Part shown: in pieces, positions 1 through 53,445 of the stretch
Layout of the letters: each line of letters begins with the position of its first letter
Position numbering within the stretch: position 1 is the first letter of the stretch
DNA from: Candidatus Cloacimonadales bacterium
Lineage (GTDB): Bacteria > Cloacimonadota > Cloacimonadia > Cloacimonadales > JAFGVF01
Direction of reading: 5' to 3'
Assembly (NCBI GenBank): GCA_963678315.1
Contig: OY782781.1
Span: 2,720,001-2,784,000, forward strand
DNA: 64,000 nt
The notes under the pieces: model-generated
What the model was told of the DNA's origin: nothing
What the model saw: the letters and a program-made list of their open reading frames with translations, nothing else
Database searches by the model: none
Made by a program: the position numbers and the translations under genes

Positions 1-115
1 TTACTCACCCGTTTGCCACTGTACTCACTCTCCGAAGAAAGCTTTCTCGTTCGACTTGCATGCCTAATCCACGCCGCCAGCGTTCGTCCTGAGCCAGAAT
101 CAAACTCTCCATTAT
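1..115 (-). rRNA. rrs: 16S rRNA gene, 5' end only (continues off the left edge)
   Basis: Reverse complement reads GGAGAGTTTGATTCTGGCTCAGGACGAACGCTGGCGGCGTGGATTAGGCATGCAAGTCGAACG...GGGTGAGTAA; 27F site at 89-108. The exact 5' end is approximate. Confidence 0.98.
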
Positions 116-2318: not shown

Positions 2319-2560
2319 AGACGTTCTTCCGAACGTCTCTACAAATTCATCACTCTCTCCTAACTCCTCACTGCTAACTTCTCTTTGCCAGCTATCCGGC
2401 AGCAGCCGGACTAAAGGCAAAGCGTTCCCAGATATTTTCATTATTCAATTTTCCCTGTTAATTTTTCATTATACCGTCCCTTTGGGACTCAATTCATTTA
2501 TGTCATTGTACATGGGGTACAAGACCCCATGCTAATACATGTCGTCCCTTCGGGACTAAA
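2319..2560. repeat. Intergenic mosaic of REP-like modules
   Basis: GTAG-type half (..CGTCTCTAC); CTCCTMA heptamers (2357-2382); 51-bp unit at 2381-2431 identical to 23309-23359; CGTC-type three-hairpin unit at 2471-2560 similar to the reverse complement of 35127-35210. Confidence 0.85.
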
Positions 2561-23005: not shown

Positions 23006-23422
23006 TCTATATCGTCCCTTTGGGACTAAACTTGCTCTTCATTGTCAATTATCAATTCATCCTCACATCTCCCACTATGAAATCATAGGCTCTGAAGAGA
23101 TATGTCCCCAAGCTACATTACATTCTTTGACCCTGTAAGGGTTAATCTTAAAAGAGCCCTGGGTTTTAACCCTGGGTGATAAGATTGGAGCTAATTTTTT
23201 CCATCTTTTTTTTATTTAACAAACATCCTTTCGTCTCTACAAATTCACTTATAACTACGTTCTAAGTAAAGCCAGCACAGAGGCTGAGCGTTCCCAGGGT
23301 CCTGACTCCTCTTTGCCAGCTATCCGGCAGCAGCCGGACTAAAGGCAAAGCGTTCCCAGTGTCCCACCTCCTGCCTTAAGGGTCTCTTTGAAAAATTGGC
23401 TTTTTTCAAAGAGGCAAGTAAG
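23006..23422. repeat. Intergenic mosaic of REP-like modules
   Basis: CGTCCCTTTGGGAC (23013); CCCACTATGAAATCATAGG unit (23071, similar to the reverse complement near 35280); ACCCTGTAAGGGT (23130); CGTCTCTACAAATTCA (23232); GCGTTCCCAG-ended units (23271-23297, 23309-23359); 48-nt palindrome (23375-23422). Confidence 0.85.
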
Positions 23423-46370: not shown

Positions 46371-46531
46371 CCCAGATGATGCATTAGGATTGACGAAAAT
46401 AGTGCAGATTCTTTCAGCAAAATAGCTTACAGAATCGAAGCTTGAATAATATTTATTCTAGTTGAGATTATGGAAGTTATTCTTGCCAAATAATATCGTG
46501 CTATTTTTCAAGTCCTAGTGCATTATTTGGG
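46371..46531 (+). repeat. Long rod-like imperfect hairpin, copy A (candidate structured ncRNA or MITE-like element)
   Basis: CCCAGATGATGCATTAGG pairs with CCTAGTGCATTATTTGGG (G-T wobbles on the + strand); 77-nt core 46412-46488 is 71/77 identical to 59465-59541. Confidence 0.75.
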
Positions 46532-46544
46532 TTTATAGAAACTA

Positions 46545-47444
46545 CTAGTATTTAACTACTTCATATTTTCCTGAGTCAAGCAATCTTCTAATAATACCAG
46601 TATCATTAACATAGTGTCCAGCACCTACAATAACAAAAGCTGTTTTGTTTTGAGCTAGCATATCTTCAATTTTAGCAGTCATTTTAGTATCTCTATCACC
46701 AAATAAACTCTTGATATAAGCTTCTTCTTCTTTAGTTTCAAAGTTTGTGAAGTAAGCTTTCATAGCTTGAGCATCACCTCTTTGCCAAATATCAGCTAGA
46801 GAGTTTAATTGTTCTTTGTAATTTTCTGCTTCCACTAGTGATTTTCTTAAAAGTCCTTCAGAGCTTGACTCATCTGAGCTAAATAATAATTCAATTTGAC
46901 CTTCAATACCTTCAAGCTCTACAATCTCTTTATTCATCTCATTAGCTCTATTTAAAAAGTGCACATCAATACCGTATTCAGCATTTAAACCTGCTTTCAT
47001 TGATTCATTTTGAACAATTGAGATATTGATTAGACCAGGCTTCATCATGTTAATTTGTTGCATAGGTGCATTCAATGCGGTGAAATATTCAACTAACAGT
47101 TCATAAGTTTCTGGAGAAATATGATCTTTGATTGTTGTACCATCCATATAGATACCTTTAGACGCGATCATTTGTTGAATCATCATTTGATCAACATTCA
47201 ACATATCTACTTCTACAGCTAACAAATCGGATTGAGTAAAAGCATCTTCTACCACTTTATCCATTGGGAAAAATTCTTTCTTACCAAAATGCATTGAGCC
47301 TAATAAATAAACTGAACTATCTTCATCTGAAACCTTCCAGAACATCATTTCACCACTATCAAGTGGATCTGAGGATGAGAACATTGAACAACTAGATAAT
47401 ACTACTAATACAAGTGCAAAAAGCACAAATTTTCTTAACTTCAT
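46545..47444 (-). CDS. TraB/GumN-family lipoprotein
   Basis: Lipobox LSSC, YLLGSMH, GID..F, LE....Q, R...M, VGAGH. Confidence 0.9.
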   Translation of the reverse strand: MKLRKFVLFALVLVVLSSCSMFSSSDPLDSGEMMFWKVSDEDSSVYLLGSMHFGKKEFFPMDKVVEDAFTQSDLLAVEVDMLNVDQMMIQQMIASKGIYMDGTTIKDHISPETYELLVEYFTALNAPMQQINMMKPGLINISIVQNESMKAGLNAEYGIDVHFLNRANEMNKEIVELEGIEGQIELLFSSDESSSEGLLRKSLVEAENYKEQLNSLADIWQRGDAQAMKAYFTNFETKEEEAYIKSLFGDRDTKMTAKIEDMLAQNKTAFVIVGAGHYVNDTGIIRRLLDSGKYEVVKY

Positions 47445-47504
47445 AACATACTCCATATATTTTTTGTTAATATCTTTTCAAATGACAAATAAGTCAAGCA
47501 CAAA

Positions 47505-49496
47505 CTATTTTACTATAAGTACTTTTGTTACTTCACTGCTTCCTTTTCCACTTACTTTTATGATATAAACACCTTCAGCAACTTTTAAATCAACATCAAA
47601 AGTTACTTCTTTTGAATTAGCATAATAATCTTTTCTTTTCACTAATTGTCCTCGTAAATTGTATAGTTCAACGGTTTCAACATTATGTTCAGATTTAATT
47701 GCTAGTTTATTATCTACAAGTGGATTTGGATATATTCTTAGATTACAAGCTTCTACATCGTTACTAGCATTTTCTGTTGCATAAGAAGACAAACTGATTC
47801 TGTCAATCATGATCATAGATGCTTGATTACTACAATTCTTAAGCCAAAAGTTAGTAATCATATCATCACCAGAAACACTGTATTCAAAGTTTAGGAGGCT
47901 ATAGTCAGGCGTAATTTCTATATAAGGCATTTCATAGGCTTCTACAGATTGAGAAGAATCATTATTTAAATAGATTCCTGTTTTTATTCTGTCATAACCC
48001 CATTCAGAAGATAAGCTTCTTAGCCAGACCATTACATTTAGCTGCTGAGTTCGAAAATCTGGCGAAATAAGTAAATCCTCGGTAAAACCATTGTTTGCTG
48101 AGACACTGACCAGAGACTTGTCTTGAATATTGTTTATATTTAAAGTAGAATCTAGAGAGTTAAAATCAATAATGAAAAAACCACTATGACTACCTTCATT
48201 CTCAAAATCAAACCATGGAAAGGTCACAGTATTTGCTTGGTCAAGATCATAAGACTGCCAAACTCCTAGATTATCTTCACCATTTTGATAAGATTGGAAA
48301 TCATCATTTATAATGAACTCAGCCCCTTGAAGTGGTGATATCTCAATTGAATTTGATTGGCAAGTGTAAGCAATAAAGTCTTTTGTAACATATATGTTAT
48401 CAAGGTTATCAAATTCATTTAAGTTGAGAGTATAGCTTGTTGCATTGCATGAAATACTTTCGCTTCCACAGTTGACCATATAGACACATTCATCTTCAGT
48501 AACAAAACTTGGAAACCAAGTCATTGAAATAGAATCATTACCAATATTAGTTGTAATCAAATCTATATGAGGAAGATCTCCTGCAAAGCTTAGAGAATAT
48601 TCTTCACTTGGGTATTCTAAACCATTCAATGCATTTATAAACTTAATTGTATAGTCTTTGCTAGGACACCACATTTCAGGTAAAACTATTCTATACTGGT
48701 TGTTAGAGATGCTTTCTAATTCTAAATCTTCAATTACATCAGATATAGATTCAGTTTGGTACTCCATTCTAATGGACCCTATTTCATTTGCTTGCACAAC
48801 AATATCAACTGCAATATCAAGGTTGTCTAAATTATTAGTTGGACTTACTAGTAAAGGACAATTTACAGAGGGCTCAAATTCAAACTTGGTATTAGGAAGG
48901 TAGTTTCTTAAGAATTGACCATTAACAAGGTTGTTAACATCTATTAAGGAATCAAATTGGCAGTATGCTAAAGATGTATTGGCTTGTGTTTCAAAACATA
49001 GGAAGTTATCACTAGTGGAAGCGTAATCTTCTCGGTTCTCAACAAAGACTACTGCTAAATTATTATTTTCTGTATATTCAAAGTCAGTTTGGAAATCTAT
49101 ATTTAACCACCCTTCCCCAACTTCTGTAGAAAAATTGTTAGCTGTTAACTCTCCTTCGAATACTAACTCTAATGATGAAGTATCAATCCAATCATCATTT
49201 GTAGCAAACTCCAGTCCATCAGTATAGCCCATATAGATAGAAACATCATTTATGTAACTTGCAGGATTAGGACTCTCTATTGAATATTGATAACTAATGG
49301 AATTAATGCTTCCTAAGGAATTAAAGTAATCACGACTATATATAGTCTCACTCATTGAATAATTATAGTGTGGATCAGAAGGTAAATGTTGATTGTCTAT
49401 GGTTCCCCCACCGACCTCGATTGAATAAGCATATATTTTATTTACACTACAAATAGCAAAGAATACAAATAATACTACAGCACCAAAGCGTTTCAT
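47505..49496 (-). CDS. Secreted protein with T9SS type-A-like C-terminal domain
   Basis: Signal peptide; cleaved-adhesin-like segment (W...D.D...F..EG..DLLISP); C-terminal IYPNP...LYNLRGQLV...GVYIIKV...KVLIVK. Confidence 0.8.
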   Translation of the reverse strand: MKRFGAVVLFVFFAICSVNKIYAYSIEVGGGTIDNQHLPSDPHYNYSMSETIYSRDYFNSLGSINSISYQYSIESPNPASYINDVSIYMGYTDGLEFATNDDWIDTSSLELVFEGELTANNFSTEVGEGWLNIDFQTDFEYTENNNLAVVFVENREDYASTSDNFLCFETQANTSLAYCQFDSLIDVNNLVNGQFLRNYLPNTKFEFEPSVNCPLLVSPTNNLDNLDIAVDIVVQANEIGSIRMEYQTESISDVIEDLELESISNNQYRIVLPEMWCPSKDYTIKFINALNGLEYPSEEYSLSFAGDLPHIDLITTNIGNDSISMTWFPSFVTEDECVYMVNCGSESISCNATSYTLNLNEFDNLDNIYVTKDFIAYTCQSNSIEISPLQGAEFIINDDFQSYQNGEDNLGVWQSYDLDQANTVTFPWFDFENEGSHSGFFIIDFNSLDSTLNINNIQDKSLVSVSANNGFTEDLLISPDFRTQQLNVMVWLRSLSSEWGYDRIKTGIYLNNDSSQSVEAYEMPYIEITPDYSLLNFEYSVSGDDMITNFWLKNCSNQASMIMIDRISLSSYATENASNDVEACNLRIYPNPLVDNKLAIKSEHNVETVELYNLRGQLVKRKDYYANSKEVTFDVDLKVAEGVYIIKVSGKGSSEVTKVLIVK

Positions 49497-49600
49497 ATTT
49501 CCTCCAAATATAAGTCTAGTAAACCATTAAATATATTTACAATTATTTATCTACAGTTGTCAAGAGCTTTTTGAGAAATGTGGAAATATTTAGTACAATT

Positions 49601-49627
49601 AAAAAAGGCTACTCATTTGAGTAGCCT
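49601..49627 (-). terminator. Duplicated tRNA-Asn terminator
   Basis: AGGCTACTCA/TGAGTAGCCT stem with a U-tract on the minus strand. Confidence 0.75.
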
Positions 49628-49633
49628 AATCTA

Positions 49634-49716
49634 TGGCTCCGACAGAGGGATCCGGCAGTTGCCGGACAAGTTCCGAACCCCCGTCCGTCCGGCAGCTGCC
49701 GGATAACAGCCACCCG
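49634..49716 (-). pseudogene. 3'-part copy of tRNA-Asn disrupted by two 16-nt palindromes
   Basis: Matches the tRNA 3' portion including CCA; palindromes at 49651-49666 and 49688-49703. Confidence 0.9.
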
Positions 49717-49765
49717 GTTGACATCACATGTTATTTATTATATTTCTAATAAGATCTCTGCAACG

Positions 49766-49793
49766 AAAAAAAGGCTACTCAGTTGAGTAGCCT
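49766..49793 (-). terminator. tRNA-Asn intrinsic terminator
   Basis: AGGCTACTCA-GT-TGAGTAGCCT with T7 on the minus strand. Confidence 0.85.
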
Positions 49794-49799
49794 AATCTA

Positions 49800-49874
49800 T
49801 GGCTCCGACAGAGGGATTTGAACCCCCGACCTAGTGGTTAACAGCCACCCGCTCTACCGCTGAGCCATGTCGGA
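49800..49874 (-). tRNA. tRNA-Asn (GTT)
   Basis: TCCGACATGGCTCAGCGGTAGAGCGGGTGGCTGTTAACCACTAGGTCGGGGGTTCAAATCCCTCTGTCGGAGCCA; full cloverleaf with encoded CCA. Confidence 0.97.
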
Positions 49875-49912
49875 ATAATTAATAAAGATTTGATTGACAC
49901 TTTTCATTGGTC

Positions 49913-49979
49913 GGGATTAAACCCCCGTCCGGCAACTGCCGGATAACAGCCACCCGCTCTACCGCTGAGCCATGTCGGA
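49913..49979 (-). pseudogene. 5'-part copy of tRNA-Asn disrupted by a 16-nt palindrome
   Basis: Identical to the tRNA from its 5' end through A37, then TCCGGCAGTTGCCGGA (49928-49943) replaces 10 nt; degenerate T arm; no acceptor 3' strand. Confidence 0.9.
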
Positions 49980-50003
49980 ATGATTATCAATCATGTTTAA
50001 TCA

Positions 50004-50032
50004 AAATATAATATTAGTGTTTCTGTGTCAAT
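50004..50032 (-). promoter_or_regulatory. Putative promoter of the tRNA-Asn locus
   Basis: Minus strand TTGACA (50032-50027), 17 nt, TATTTT. Confidence 0.5.
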
Positions 50033-50042
50033 AATAAATTTA

Positions 50043-50480
50043 TTATTTTTCTAAAATAATGGTAACAGGTCCATCATTAGTTAATTGTATCTTCATATCT
50101 GCAGCAAAGATACCTGTTTTTGGTTCTTTATAAATATTTTTAATTTGTTCTATCATTTTCTTGTATAAACCTTCTGCTATATCAGGTTTTGCAGTGTTAA
50201 TAAAGTCTGGACGCATACCTCTTTTACAGTTGGCATATAGAGTAAACTGAGAGACAAGCATAACATCCCCTTCAATATCTTTAACTGATAAGTTCATTTT
50301 ACCATTACAATCTTCGAATATTCTTAATCCAATGAGTTTATTAACAAGCCATTCTATCTCCGTACCTGTATCTTGACAACCGATACCGACAAAAACTAAA
50401 AGACCTTTTCCTATTTCAGAGACTAATTTATTATCAACAGTCACAGAAGCATTATTTACTCTTTGAATCAAAAGTTTCAT
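50043..50480 (-). CDS. dtd: D-aminoacyl-tRNA deacylase
   Basis: QRV..ASV, LRIF.D..GKMN, SQFTL, NDGPVT. Confidence 0.97.
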   Translation of the reverse strand: MKLLIQRVNNASVTVDNKLVSEIGKGLLVFVGIGCQDTGTEIEWLVNKLIGLRIFEDCNGKMNLSVKDIEGDVMLVSQFTLYANCKRGMRPDFINTAKPDIAEGLYKKMIEQIKNIYKEPKTGIFAADMKIQLTNDGPVTIILEK

Positions 50481-51445
50481 TAAACTACACCAGCTTTGAT
50501 TAGGTCATGTAGATGTAAAACACCAACAGGTTCATTATCTTTATCAATAACAGGTAAAACAGTAATATTAAAGTCTTCCATTACATTCAAAGCTTCTACA
50601 GCAAGAATATCTTCTTTTATTGATTTAGGACTAGAAGTCATAGCCTTATTTACAGGAAAAGTAGCAAGCTCATTGTAGCCCTTTTGTAAGAACCTTCTCA
50701 AATCACCATCAGTAACTATTCCTACTAACTTGTTAGCTTCAAGCACCAAGACACATCCAAGCTTTTTGGAGGTCATGGTCATGATAGCTTTATCCATTGT
50801 TGAAGTAATCTCGATAGTAGGGCAATCATCTCCCCTATGCATTAAATCTTCTACTCTTAGAAGAATCTTTTTCCCTATAGATCCGCCTGGATGAAACTGA
50901 GCATAATCTTCAAGTTTAAAGTTTCTCTTCTTAAGTAACGAAACTGCAAGAGCATCACCAACAGCTAATTCTACAGTAGTGCTTGCTGTAGGTACTAAGC
51001 CTAATTGTTCAAACTCTTTAGGTACTGAGCAGTCAATGACTACATCAGAATGTTGAGCAAGTTTGCTCTGCAAGTTGCCAGTTAAACCTATTAAGGGAAT
51101 CTTGTTGAATTTTATAAATGGTATAATCGAAATTAGTTCTTGAGTGTTTCCACTGTTGGAAATAGCAATAACAACGTCTTCTTTTTGGAGCATTCCTAAA
51201 TCGCCATGAATACCTTCTGCAGGGTGTAGAAATATAGAAGTAGTACCTGTACTAGCTAGTGTAGCAGATATCTTACGTGCTATCAAACCCGCTTTACCCA
51301 TACCGGTTACCACAACTTTACCTTTGCATTCAACTAAAATTTCCAAAGCTTCAACTACATTATTATCTATTTTATCGGAACACATTTGGATAGCTTTAGC
51401 TTGTTGTTCAAGCTCTTTTTTAACAACTTTGATATAATCTTTCAT
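50480..51445 (-). CDS. kdsD: Arabinose-5-phosphate isomerase (KpsF/GutQ, SIS + CBS)
   Basis: GMGK.G.I..KI.ATL.STGT, HGDLG, PTAST, HPGG..G, CBS pair. Confidence 0.93.
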   Translation of the reverse strand: MKDYIKVVKKELEQQAKAIQMCSDKIDNNVVEALEILVECKGKVVVTGMGKAGLIARKISATLASTGTTSIFLHPAEGIHGDLGMLQKEDVVIAISNSGNTQELISIIPFIKFNKIPLIGLTGNLQSKLAQHSDVVIDCSVPKEFEQLGLVPTASTTVELAVGDALAVSLLKKRNFKLEDYAQFHPGGSIGKKILLRVEDLMHRGDDCPTIEITSTMDKAIMTMTSKKLGCVLVLEANKLVGIVTDGDLRRFLQKGYNELATFPVNKAMTSSPKSIKEDILAVEALNVMEDFNITVLPVIDKDNEPVGVLHLHDLIKAGVV

Positions 51446-51537
51446 CTTATCGCCTACTATTAGAAAGGGTAAACACATTGGTTTACCCTAATTATTTATC
51501 CTCTGAGCTAGCTAATAAAGCTCACTCTTCTTAATCA

Positions 51538-53445
51538 TTATTCTTCATCTTCTAAAACTGATTTAATAGCATCTTCAACCTTTAGAATACCTAAATCACC
51601 TTTAGTATGACGTCTAACTGATACAGAATCAGCTTCAGCTTCTTTACCACCAATAATGAACATGTATGGTATCTTAGAAACTTCAGCTTCTCTTATCTTG
51701 TAACCAATCTTTTCTGTTCTAGTATCAATTTCAGCTCTTATACCAGCAGCTTTGAGTTTTGCAAGAACTTCTTGGCCATATTCATTTACAGAATCAGCAA
51801 TAGGAAGAACTTTAACTTGAACTGGGCATAACCATACTGGGAAGTTTCCTGCATGGTATTCAATTAAAGTACCAAAGAAACGTTCGATAGAGCCTAATAA
51901 AGCTCTATGAATCATATAAGGTCTGTGAGGTTGATTATCTGAGCCTATGTAGTCCATATCAAACCTAGTTGGTAAGTTAAAGTCGAACTGAATAGTAGTA
52001 CATTGCCATGATCTGTTTAAAGCATCCTTAATCTTAATATCAATTTTAGGACCATAGAAAGCTCCACCACCTTCATCTACTTTGTATTCTAAGCCATGTT
52101 TCTCAATTGCTTTCTTGAGTGATTCAGTAGCTTTATCCCATTCTTCAACTTCTCCAACAGCCTTTTCAGGTTTTGTTGATAAGTATATGTCAAAGTTATT
52201 GAAACCGAATTTCTTTAGAATCATTAGAGAGAAGTCTAGTAACTTTTCAACTTCAGTCTCTAACTGATCAGGTGTACATATAATATGAGCGTCATCTTGT
52301 GTAAAACCTCTAACTCTCATCAAGCCATGTAAAGCTCCAGAAAGCTCATTTCTGTACACAGTTCCAAGCTCAGCCATTTTATAAGGAAGCTCACGGTATG
52401 ATCTTCTAGATGATTTGTATATCATTATGTGGAATGGACAGTTCATAGGTTTTACATAATAGTCTATTCCATCCATTTCCATTGAGTCATACATGCCATC
52501 TTTGTAGAAATGCAAGTGACCACTAGTTTCCCACAAAGTACCTTTACCAATATGTGGTGTATAAACTAAATTATAATCATAAGCCAGATGTTGTTCTTTC
52601 CAATAAGACTCTATTTGATGTCTAATCATAGCACCTTTAGGATGCCATAAAACTAAACCTGCACCAATTTCATCATTGATTGAGAAAAGGTCTAATTCCT
52701 TACCAATCTTTCTGTGGTCTCTTTTCTTAGCTTCTTCTAAATTGTTTAAGTGCACCTTAAGATCTTTTTTAGAAGGGAAAGAGATACCATATATTCTCTT
52801 AAGCATTTTATTCTTTTCATCGCCTCTCCAGTAAGCACCTGAAGAACGTAATAATTTAAAAGCTTTAATCTTGCCAGTATGAGTTACATGAGGACCTCTA
52901 CACAAGTCTGTGAAGTCACCTTGAGTATATAACGAAAGAGTTTCATCTTCTGGAATTTCGTTTAAGATCTCCAATTTATAAGGCTCATCCATCTCTTTGA
53001 AAATTTCTATTGCTTCATTTCTTGAAACTTCTTTTCTTGAATAAGGAAGCTTTTGCTTAGAAAGTTCTTTCATCTTGTCTTCGATTTTAACAAGTTCTTC
53101 TTCAGAGAATGCTTTGTCTCGATCAAAGTCATAATAGAAACCGTTTTCTATAGCAGGACCAATAGTTACTTTTACATCTGGATAAAGTTGTTTAACAGCT
53201 TGAGCCATTAAGTGAGCAGTAGAATGCCAGAATATTTCAGGACCTTCTTCTGATTTAAAGGTTATAATTGATACTTCTGCATCTGAATCTATTTTATGAT
53301 TTAAATCTACTTTCTTTCCATTTACTATTCCAGCTAAAGCAGCGTTAGCTAGTCCATCGCTGATACTTCTAGCGACTTCTAATACATCAATTTGTCCTTC
53401 AAACTCTTTTATTGAGCCATCAGGTAATTTAATTTTTAAACTCAT
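51538..53445 (-). CDS. thrS: Threonine--tRNA ligase
   Basis: TGS domain, HSTAH, DLCRGPH, RDHRK.G, KPMNCP.H, RVRGFTQDDAH, HRA..GS.ERF. Confidence 0.99.
   Translation of the reverse strand: MSLKIKLPDGSIKEFEGQIDVLEVARSISDGLANAALAGIVNGKKVDLNHKIDSDAEVSIITFKSEEGPEIFWHSTAHLMAQAVKQLYPDVKVTIGPAIENGFYYDFDRDKAFSEEELVKIEDKMKELSKQKLPYSRKEVSRNEAIEIFKEMDEPYKLEILNEIPEDETLSLYTQGDFTDLCRGPHVTHTGKIKAFKLLRSSGAYWRGDEKNKMLKRIYGISFPSKKDLKVHLNNLEEAKKRDHRKIGKELDLFSINDEIGAGLVLWHPKGAMIRHQIESYWKEQHLAYDYNLVYTPHIGKGTLWETSGHLHFYKDGMYDSMEMDGIDYYVKPMNCPFHIMIYKSSRRSYRELPYKMAELGTVYRNELSGALHGLMRVRGFTQDDAHIICTPDQLETEVEKLLDFSLMILKKFGFNNFDIYLSTKPEKAVGEVEEWDKATESLKKAIEKHGLEYKVDEGGGAFYGPKIDIKIKDALNRSWQCTTIQFDFNLPTRFDMDYIGSDNQPHRPYMIHRALLGSIERFFGTLIEYHAGNFPVWLCPVQVKVLPIADSVNEYGQEVLAKLKAAGIRAEIDTRTEKIGYKIREAEVSKIPYMFIIGGKEAEADSVSVRRHTKGDLGILKVEDAIKSVLEDEE

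Follow-up and report, generated by a model that had tools for sequence, protein, structure and literature searches.

The DNA analysed here is a stretch of 64,000 nucleotides (nt) from a Candidatus Cloacimonadales bacterium (the window), and at 49601-49979 it contains an intact tRNA-Asn gene lying between two broken copies of itself, each of which carries a 16-nt palindrome. We are nearly certain that this locus is a decayed member of a family of tRNA-linked cassettes, each built around a small gene for a GIY-YIG nuclease. The explanation that we favour for the cassette, with a probability of roughly 0.5, is a free-standing homing-type selfish element that spreads by recombination through tRNA homology. 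With at least 582 loci in species representatives of Bacteroidota, Balneolota and Cloacimonadota, it would be a large and apparently undescribed family of selfish cassettes at tRNA genes.

All tRNA features of the window locus are on the minus strand, and one of them is an intact gene, tRNA-Asn(GTT) at 49874-49800, recognized by both ARAGORN and Rfam (70.6 bits). It is preceded by an upstream unit of 105 nt (49875-49979) made up of a 5′ copy, a hairpin, a T-arm stub and a spacer, and it is followed by a terminator, the remnant of an open reading frame (ORF) and a 3′ copy. In the order of transcription the parts are:

49944-49979, minus strand: 5′ tRNA-Asn copy, nt 1-36 by count (canonical positions 1-37), identical to the intact gene
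49928-49943, minus strand: signature hairpin TCCGGCAGTTGCCGGA of the upstream unit, in place of ACCACTAGGT
49875-49927, minus strand: T-arm-like remnant (CGGGGGTTTAATCCCG) and spacer
49800-49874, minus strand: intact tRNA-Asn(GTT), from ARAGORN and Rfam
49766-49799, minus strand: terminator-like hairpin and T run of the intact tRNA
49724-49759, minus strand: GIY-YIG ORF remnant of 11 final codons (RDLIRNIINNM) plus stop, which matches the intact gene at genome 14193-14438 in its 3′ end
49704-49715, minus strand: 5′ strand and loop of the anticodon stem (GGGTGGCTGTTA), with which the trailing tRNA-Asn copy begins
49688-49703, minus strand: hairpin 1 (TCCGGCAGCTGCCGGA), which replaces 10 nt after position 37 (ACCACTAGGT in the intact gene)
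49667-49687, minus strand: CGGA repeat, polymorphic for a 4-nt indel at 49681, with the 5′ strand of the T stem and an altered T loop
49651-49666, minus strand: hairpin 2, with inverted loop orientation, in the T loop of the 3′ copy
49601-49650, minus strand: T-stem 3′ strand, acceptor 3′ strand, CCA and second terminator copy

The original prediction, made from the letters of this DNA, had described an intact tRNA-Asn between two broken copies with a 16-nt palindrome, and the arrangement is real. At up to two mismatches the palindrome TCCGGCAGYWGCCGGA is found at five sites (10 strand matches) in the window, compared with 0.00 expected from 100 shuffles, and the contigs of four studies contain the locus. 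For a looser form of the pattern the reversed-pattern control gave zero. We also found, as had been claimed, that the same 10 nt after position 37 are replaced in both partial copies, that 49650-49601 and 49816-49767 differ by one mismatch, and that the palindrome in the T arm of the 3′ copy (49651-49666) has the opposite orientation. The 5′ copy has an Rfam tRNA score of 19.1 bits, below the gathering score of 29, and the 3′ copy has no Rfam tRNA match; the partial copies thus fail the threshold for a functional cloverleaf. An Rfam scan of window 49500-50100 gave no family for the hairpin repeats or the partial copies. The original prediction had compared the replacement site with the intron position 37/38 of archaeal and eukaryotic tRNAs. 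This agreement is a coincidence, and an archaeal-type tRNA intron was rejected, since nothing is inserted and 10 nt are replaced by 16. An origin of the palindrome from P nucleotides or a fold-back was rejected because the same sequence recurs in unrelated contexts. As a separate observation, hairpins 1 and 2 of the 3′ copy can pair with each other in a stem of ∼17 base pairs (bp) around the T-arm stub (DNA fold −31.2 kcal/mol, z −5.2), and their arrangement in window 49601-49730, minus strand, is reminiscent of a very small element that ends in inverted repeats.

The region is repetitive and no one short-read contig spans all of it, as might be expected had a repeat been collapsed or mis-joined in the assembly. 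The lack of a single contig across the whole stretch is, however, explained by unitigs breaking within the repeated tRNA. Both junction regions are tiled by overlapping Logan contigs from four runs of four studies, and each junction is reproduced with 0-3 differences. In run X1, which may itself be the source sample, 49300-49812 is represented by records 1-3, with 0-1 differences, and 49850-50300 by records 4-8; run X2 is similar. This genome, a single contig, has the same architecture at a second locus, and scores of other genomes share it. Mis-assembly, which the original prediction had named as a concern, therefore has a negligible probability. The contigs also show variation: runs X2 and X5 lack the 4 nt at 49681, in the CGGA repeat beside hairpin 1, as does the copy at 14.4 kb in the genome. 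In X9, from a related strain, a contig joins 49838 directly to 49944 and the 105-nt unit is absent, so that a filled/empty polymorphism of the kind sought by the original prediction is present for the upstream unit. The X9 contigs leave 49604-49711 uncovered, to which we attach no significance.

The genome, one contig of 2.99 Mb with 32.8% G+C (G000:C1), contains 54 tRNAs, including two tRNA-Asn genes. At the one outside the window, the sister locus, two tandem 105-nt units are followed by the intact tRNA with the same terminator, an ORF of 83 amino acids (aa) and a near full-length hairpin-bearing tRNA-Asn. The last of these (genome 11698-11781) is called 'tRNA-???' with a 2-nt anticodon by ARAGORN; the cassettes explain such odd tRNA-finder calls and the hairpin-bearing pseudo-tRNAs of these genomes. 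The sister locus continues with an IS21 element, a second ORF copy (82.5% identical) and a two-hairpin 3′ copy like that of the window. Both GIY-YIG ORFs (genome 11365-11613 and 14193-14438) are intact. The IS21 element, at G000:C1:11895-14104 (IstA-like, 494 aa; IstB, 242 aa, PF01695, E = 1e-71), splits the two GIY-YIG cassettes. In this genome all cassette terminators are alike, the identical type standing behind the sister tRNA-Asn and behind every 3′ copy. The same block is thus found at two of two tRNA-Asn loci; it begins with tRNA base 1 and stops where the last terminator stops, and its outer flanks differ between the loci.

Since 49759-49724 aligns with the end of the sister ORF, the window locus is a deletion derivative of the same block, in which the nuclease ORF has been reduced to its last 11 codons. 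The original prediction had stated that no integrase or nuclease gene is adjacent; no integrase is present among the ORFs of window 46500-52500, and for a nuclease the statement is incorrect, as the GIY-YIG remnant lies between the intact tRNA and the 3′ copy and intact genes are present at the sister locus. Elsewhere in the genome, at 1382589, a tRNA-Met gene has two 3′ copies behind it with the same hairpin after position 37. When all 54 tRNAs were compared with the genome by blastn-short, a check that had been suggested with the original prediction, seven partial copies were obtained, all of tRNA-Asn or tRNA-Met and all seven bearing the hairpin.

A recurrent layout, consisting of an intact tRNA, a terminator, a small GIY-YIG ORF and a hairpin-bearing tRNA copy, is found at tRNA-Asn and tRNA-Asp in Cloacimonadota and at tRNA-Met in many Bacteroidota and Balneolota. 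A GIY-YIG nuclease had been named with the original prediction as an example of a cargo gene to look for in sister genomes, and GIY-YIG ORFs do lie behind tRNA-Asn in other genomes of the order. The junction of hairpin and T-arm start is present in 12 of 203 genomes of the order, and the ORF is present at nine of these 12 hairpin loci, the other three being a contig end, a truncated unit and an unrelated terminator. The protein subfamily is found in 32 of the 203 genomes: in none of the 11 other genomes of the bacterium's own family and in 29 of 62 in family f12. Among 25 further ORF loci, 11 are behind tRNA-Asn (ORFs at least 52% identical), eight behind tRNA-Asp (40-51%) and six have no tRNA on the examined DNA. 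In the Asp type, the tRNA-Asp copy behind the ORF has 8 nt of its T arm exchanged for a different hairpin, TCCCGA..TCGGGA. In genera g44 and g55, five loci share one type of terminator before the ORF but have a different one after the trailing copy. At some loci direct repeats take in the ORF start.

The 83-aa cassette protein is a GIY-YIG nuclease domain (Pfam PF01541, E = 2.9e-18, residues 1-72). Across 19 proteins, Y5, G18, R26, H30, N31 and E63 show no variation, and the conservation of Y16 is at least 90%. Among solved proteins, the closest are UPF0213 (BH0048, EF2693) and SLX1, with E-values of 5e-10 (1zg2), 1.4e-8 and 1.9e-5, and no curated NCBIfam model fits the cassette protein. UPF0213 and SLX1 have the same catalytic core; their descriptions include neither a tRNA linkage nor a hairpin, and no SLX4-like partner is evident here. 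Branched and stem-loop DNA are cut by SLX1, an activity that would fit a hairpin as substrate. A quick tree (83 columns, weakly supported and with most forks open) places the Cloacimonadota Asn-type proteins among the Met-type proteins of Bacteroidota.

In a scan of species genomes we confirmed at least 582 loci, and the best 78 of these, from Bacteroidota, Balneolota and Cloacimonadota, were used for a tRNA census. The nearest upstream tRNA in these best 78 was Met(CAT) at 59 loci and Asn at three; at 11 there was none, and five were at a contig edge. Removal of duplicates left a non-redundant set of 100 loci. Niabella L145 and L146, identical including their flanks, do not represent two occupied loci, and L146 was removed along with seven other duplicate places. 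A perfect 6-bp TCCG/TCCC hairpin lies near the stop codon at 75 of the 100. The boundaries of the replacement are fixed: where both flanks could be mapped onto the intact tRNA, the replaced segment is exactly the 10 nt that follow position 37 at 38 of 40 Met and four of four Asn loci (42/44), and has 8 nt at four of four Asp loci. Bacteroidota loci likewise have tandem upstream units, and additional hairpins occur in their D loop, T loop or acceptor; across lineages these additional hairpins vary in place between the T loop, the T stem/acceptor and the D loop. The upstream unit of Niabella additionally contains a duplicate of the ∼40 nt preceding the intact tRNA.

The arms of the hairpin stem are TCCGCC, TCCGGC, TCCGTC or TCCGCT with the respective complement. 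Rows for the covariation analysis were selected on only three positions per arm, the outer ones, which left the inner pairs unconstrained. Stem pair 17-24 is CG in 50 rows, GC in 17, UA in two and UG in one, and is unpaired in none of the 70. The covariation score was 0.170 compared with 0.046 in shuffles, above 500 of 500 shuffles and all slid controls. The compensatory events that are independent are few, since many of the GC rows form one clade. The compensatory changes indicate that the hairpin is inherited and selected and is no repair scar. The original prediction had called the locus the scar of a tRNA-targeting process; the tRNA-linked duplication with one recurrent hairpin stands, and the word scar does not, since ∼100 cassettes from three phyla share the hairpin as a conserved and co-inherited feature whose stem shows compensatory changes. 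An Rfam search of 16 hairpin loci at E-values up to 1 gave no family match.

These loci allow a comparison with the integrative islands that target tRNA genes, which leave tRNA fragments at attL and attR. In such a case the partial copies would be remnants of an island integrated in the anticodon-loop region and later deleted. A 3′ tRNA fragment downstream of an intact tRNA is shared with these islands, and Williams is said to have described in 2002 that integrative elements leave a direct repeat from the anticodon stem to the 3′ end of the tRNA. However, no integrase was found among the ORFs of window 46500-52500, and the insert is only ∼0.35 kb; in ∼80 loci the 80-aa ORF alone is the whole insert between tRNA and copy. 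A hairpin has taken the place of the repeat core, leaving no exact direct repeat, and the upstream 5′ units are not explained. For its lack of an integrase in that interval and for the interruption of the repeat by hairpins, we rejected the classical integrase island; the explanation is very improbable and close to refuted.

We consider a homing-type cassette most likely because of the patchy distribution, the presence of the same block at both tRNA-Asn loci, the terminator type that travels with the ORF in g44/g55 and the direct repeats that take in the ORF start. The distribution does not follow the host phylogeny and is beside a conserved essential gene, and the endonuclease ORF lies directly behind the host gene and is followed by a displaced 3′ duplicate. 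A complete cassette consists of the intact tRNA with its terminator, a stand-alone GIY-YIG gene of ∼80 aa (UPF0213/SLX1-like) and a trailing tRNA copy in which a GC hairpin replaces a fixed segment; tandem upstream units with the tRNA 5′ part, the hairpin and a T-arm stub are often added. The nuclease is proposed to break DNA at or near a tRNA gene. Repair of the break by recombination, with the universally conserved tRNA as homology, would then copy the block between loci and genomes. The hairpin may strip from the spare copy the segment that is needed by the nuclease or for the tRNA fold, and it may divide the direct repeat into pieces that are too short to be deleted readily; alternatively, it could serve as a handle for a protein. 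Full-length dead copies and upstream units would be by-products of repairing the intact gene from the hairpin copy, and would survive only where a tandem intact gene remains.

A similar strategy is known in fungal mitochondria, where mobile ORF (mORF) elements, or free-standing homing endonuclease genes, are described for Allomyces atp6 and for Glomus atp6, atp9, cox2 and nad3 (PMC3630166, in part). In the portion of that account used here, an mORF element comprises a functional gene, an endonuclease ORF (GIY-YIG in atp9) and a displaced duplicate of the 3′ end of the gene, and its patchy distribution suggests horizontal transfer, all as in the cassettes (PMC3630166). The same portion describes an mORF element as bringing its own gene end (PMC3630166); the terminator pattern of g44/g55 is what that would leave. 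Several differences are nevertheless clear. The host gene of the cassette is a tRNA gene in a bacterial chromosome, the enzyme is a bare catalytic domain of 80 aa, a fixed segment of the duplicate is exchanged for a conserved hairpin, tandem 5′ units lie upstream, and the functional copy cannot diverge from the target sequence. On the conservative reading, the strategy of a mobile ORF with a duplicated gene end extends from protein genes of fungal mitochondria to bacterial tRNA genes. SegB of phage T4, likewise the product of a free-standing GIY-YIG gene next to tRNA genes, causes the tRNA region to be inherited preferentially (PMC2330249, in part). It is, however, a phage enzyme, and hairpin-substituted tRNA copies do not appear in the portion of its description used here (PMC2330249). 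Homing endonucleases of the I-TevI/Seg type tether a DNA-binding domain to the catalytic domain, whereas the cassette protein has none. SegB reportedly has extra DNA-binding parts.

Several points weigh against a homing element. Only the Pfam domains GIY-YIG and T5orf172, both over residues 1-72, were found in the 80-85-aa proteins, with no DNA-binding domain. The protein may not set the tRNA specificity, since Asn-type proteins are as close to Met-type proteins as to one another (58-71% identity in both cases). Cleavage by the nuclease is a prediction, and the tRNA gene is a putative target. The intact tRNA keeps the segment that the hairpin removes, so that simple target-site immunity would leave the host copy unprotected. 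To break homology or a fold, no single conserved sequence is needed. The presence or absence of the upstream unit could represent an insertion or, equally, a deletion between two 36-nt repeats. No empty site for a whole cassette was found; when the downstream flank of the G159 locus was searched for in the nine genomes of its genus, three matched and all were filled. The remaining points concern the hairpin outside tRNA loci. The exact sequence TCCGGC-N4-GCCGGA occurs at 37 sites in this genome, of which eight are tRNA-linked and 29 are in a family of repeats resembling repetitive extragenic palindromic (REP) sequences. All 20 of the hairpin sites sampled in Niabella ginsengisoli (G203) are in dispersed repeats away from tRNAs, as are ∼20 sites far from any tRNA in G035. 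Some hairpin-rich genomes, for example G035, G142 and G143, lack this GIY-YIG clade at E = 1e-15. The 16-nt core must move between contexts, since it is found in varied repeats, and this is the main fact that homing leaves unexplained.

These facts would be expected if the hairpin were an independent micro-palindrome similar to REP sequences or miniature inverted-repeat transposable elements (MITEs). It would be moved by a Y1 transposase, as in REP-associated tyrosine transposases (RAYTs), or by gene conversion, and would colonize dispensable stem-loop DNA, replacing one arm of REP hairpins, terminators and spare tRNA copies; the link to GIY-YIG genes would exist only because cassettes supply dispensable copies. 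REP sequences and bacterial interspersed mosaic elements (BIMEs) are short GC-rich palindromes with tens of extragenic copies, and also flank a small nuclease gene (RAYT, Y1). The hairpin of the cassettes is likewise dispersed and is nested in the REP-like family of this genome, where the 29 sites are 21-72 nt from the signature CGWTCCCAG, itself present in 207 copies. REP-like arrays, inverted, flank a Y1 transposase-like (RAYT-like) gene at G000:C1:1110583-1110822, one of nine Y1_Tnp matches. Two of the sites are in the window:

2395-2410, plus strand: same hairpin (loop AGCA) inside a REP-like dispersed repeat, not tRNA-linked
23323-23338, plus strand: same hairpin inside another copy of the REP-like repeat

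The REP/BIME-like modular repeat family occupies 2300-2440 and 23230-23420 of the window. Genome-specific repeats are also built on the hairpin core, each with its own arm type, in G035 (L007-L022, 32 sites) and Niabella (L169-L188, 41 sites); controls gave zero, and no Rfam family matched. In G160 the hairpin caps a terminator-like stem and in G015 it caps longer stems; genomes of family f12 have up to 90 hairpin sites each. These contexts, the variable places of secondary hairpins in tRNA copies and the lack of the GIY-YIG clade in some hairpin-rich genomes all speak for a micro-palindrome. On the other hand, the first hairpin has the same boundaries in the 42 of 44 mappable Met and Asn cassettes, from three phyla, and in the Asp clade a distinct hairpin occupies a fixed place of its own, which points to co-inheritance with the cassette rather than to repeated random colonization. 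Hairpins at tRNA loci adjoin GIY-YIG genes and not Y1 transposase genes, and G205 and G207 contain cassettes with merely 4-5 hairpin sites. The flanked gene thus differs from the Y1/HUH gene of REP/RAYT systems, the hairpin replaces defined tRNA segments, and its core is kept across phyla while the flanks differ. We believe that a micro-palindrome of this kind is unlikely. The conservation of the core across phyla amid changing surroundings is accounted for neither by plain homing nor by REP biology.

A new type of mobile system could combine these features, a tentative idea that we consider somewhat unlikely. In it a bare GIY-YIG protein and the hairpin would act on stem-loop DNA (or RNA). 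The hairpin would be the handle of the enzyme, 'written' in place of one arm of a stem-loop (the anticodon arm, T arm or D loop of tRNA copies, REP hairpins, terminators), and tRNA-derived flanks would find the target by homology or base pairing, giving a minimal nucleic-acid-directed nuclease element of 80 aa across the Fibrobacteres-Chlorobi-Bacteroidetes (FCB) superphylum. If it is true that the 80-aa nuclease recognizes the hairpin or is directed by the flanks, it would be among the smallest targeted nuclease systems known.

The compensatory changes bear on one further explanation, in which the hairpin-bearing tRNA copies are RNA partners of the nuclease. They could act as a decoy or antitoxin, similar to the array of a type III toxin-antitoxin system, in which tandem repeats are followed by a terminator and the toxin gene, or as a handle plus guide, with the hairpin bound by the protein and the tRNA-derived flanks paired to the target. 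Selection for intrastrand pairing suits RNA or single-stranded DNA and not duplex DNA. The layout, with tandem units, a terminator, the ORF and a further unit right behind its stop codon, is in agreement with such a role, as are the ∼40 nt before the intact tRNA that are duplicated in the Niabella unit, the lack of a domain for sequence specificity in the protein, and the match of two protein clades to two hairpin types. That match, however, may merely reflect two events. Every unit has the same tRNA-derived flank, and the left flank decays at many loci. Furthermore, to our knowledge GIY-YIG enzymes are DNA nucleases that work without RNA guides. We therefore regard an RNA partner as decidedly unlikely.

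A literature search, with subscription journals and supplements outside its reach, found nothing on tRNA-linked GIY-YIG cassettes of bacteria or on the 16-mers, and a prior description is possible.

Other small GIY-YIG paralogs of these genomes are also located at structured-RNA genes: in a 23S rRNA intervening sequence, behind the transfer-messenger RNA (tmRNA) gene and behind tRNA-Val. In this genome a small GIY-YIG ORF with a flanking inverted repeat lies inside the 23S rRNA gene at G000:C1:1142681-1142890 (L195:1482-1690), and a second 23S-internal copy is found at G000:C1:2788314-2788523, just beyond the window. The Rfam large-subunit (LSU) rRNA match at the 23S locus is 3188 nt long compared with the 2925-nt model and looks like a nuclease-carrying intervening sequence, at a position that we take to be the helix 45 site. 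Another paralog, at G000:C1:2929071-2929280, is behind the tmRNA gene (c2929838-2930191), after four tandem repeats of ∼120 nt, and tmRNA is likewise paired with a GIY-YIG gene in G035 (L164). At L168 (G015:C220, ∼800-1090) a small GIY-YIG ORF with a short flanking inverted repeat interrupts a putative tyrosine-recombinase (XerC-like) gene. Finally, an Rfam match to the Acido-Lenti-1 RNA is present at window 2511-2557, plus strand, with 43.5 bits against a gathering score of 37. A REP-like repeat lies ∼100 nt away, and the match is upstream of the 16S gene, the 5′ end of which occupies window 1-115, minus strand.

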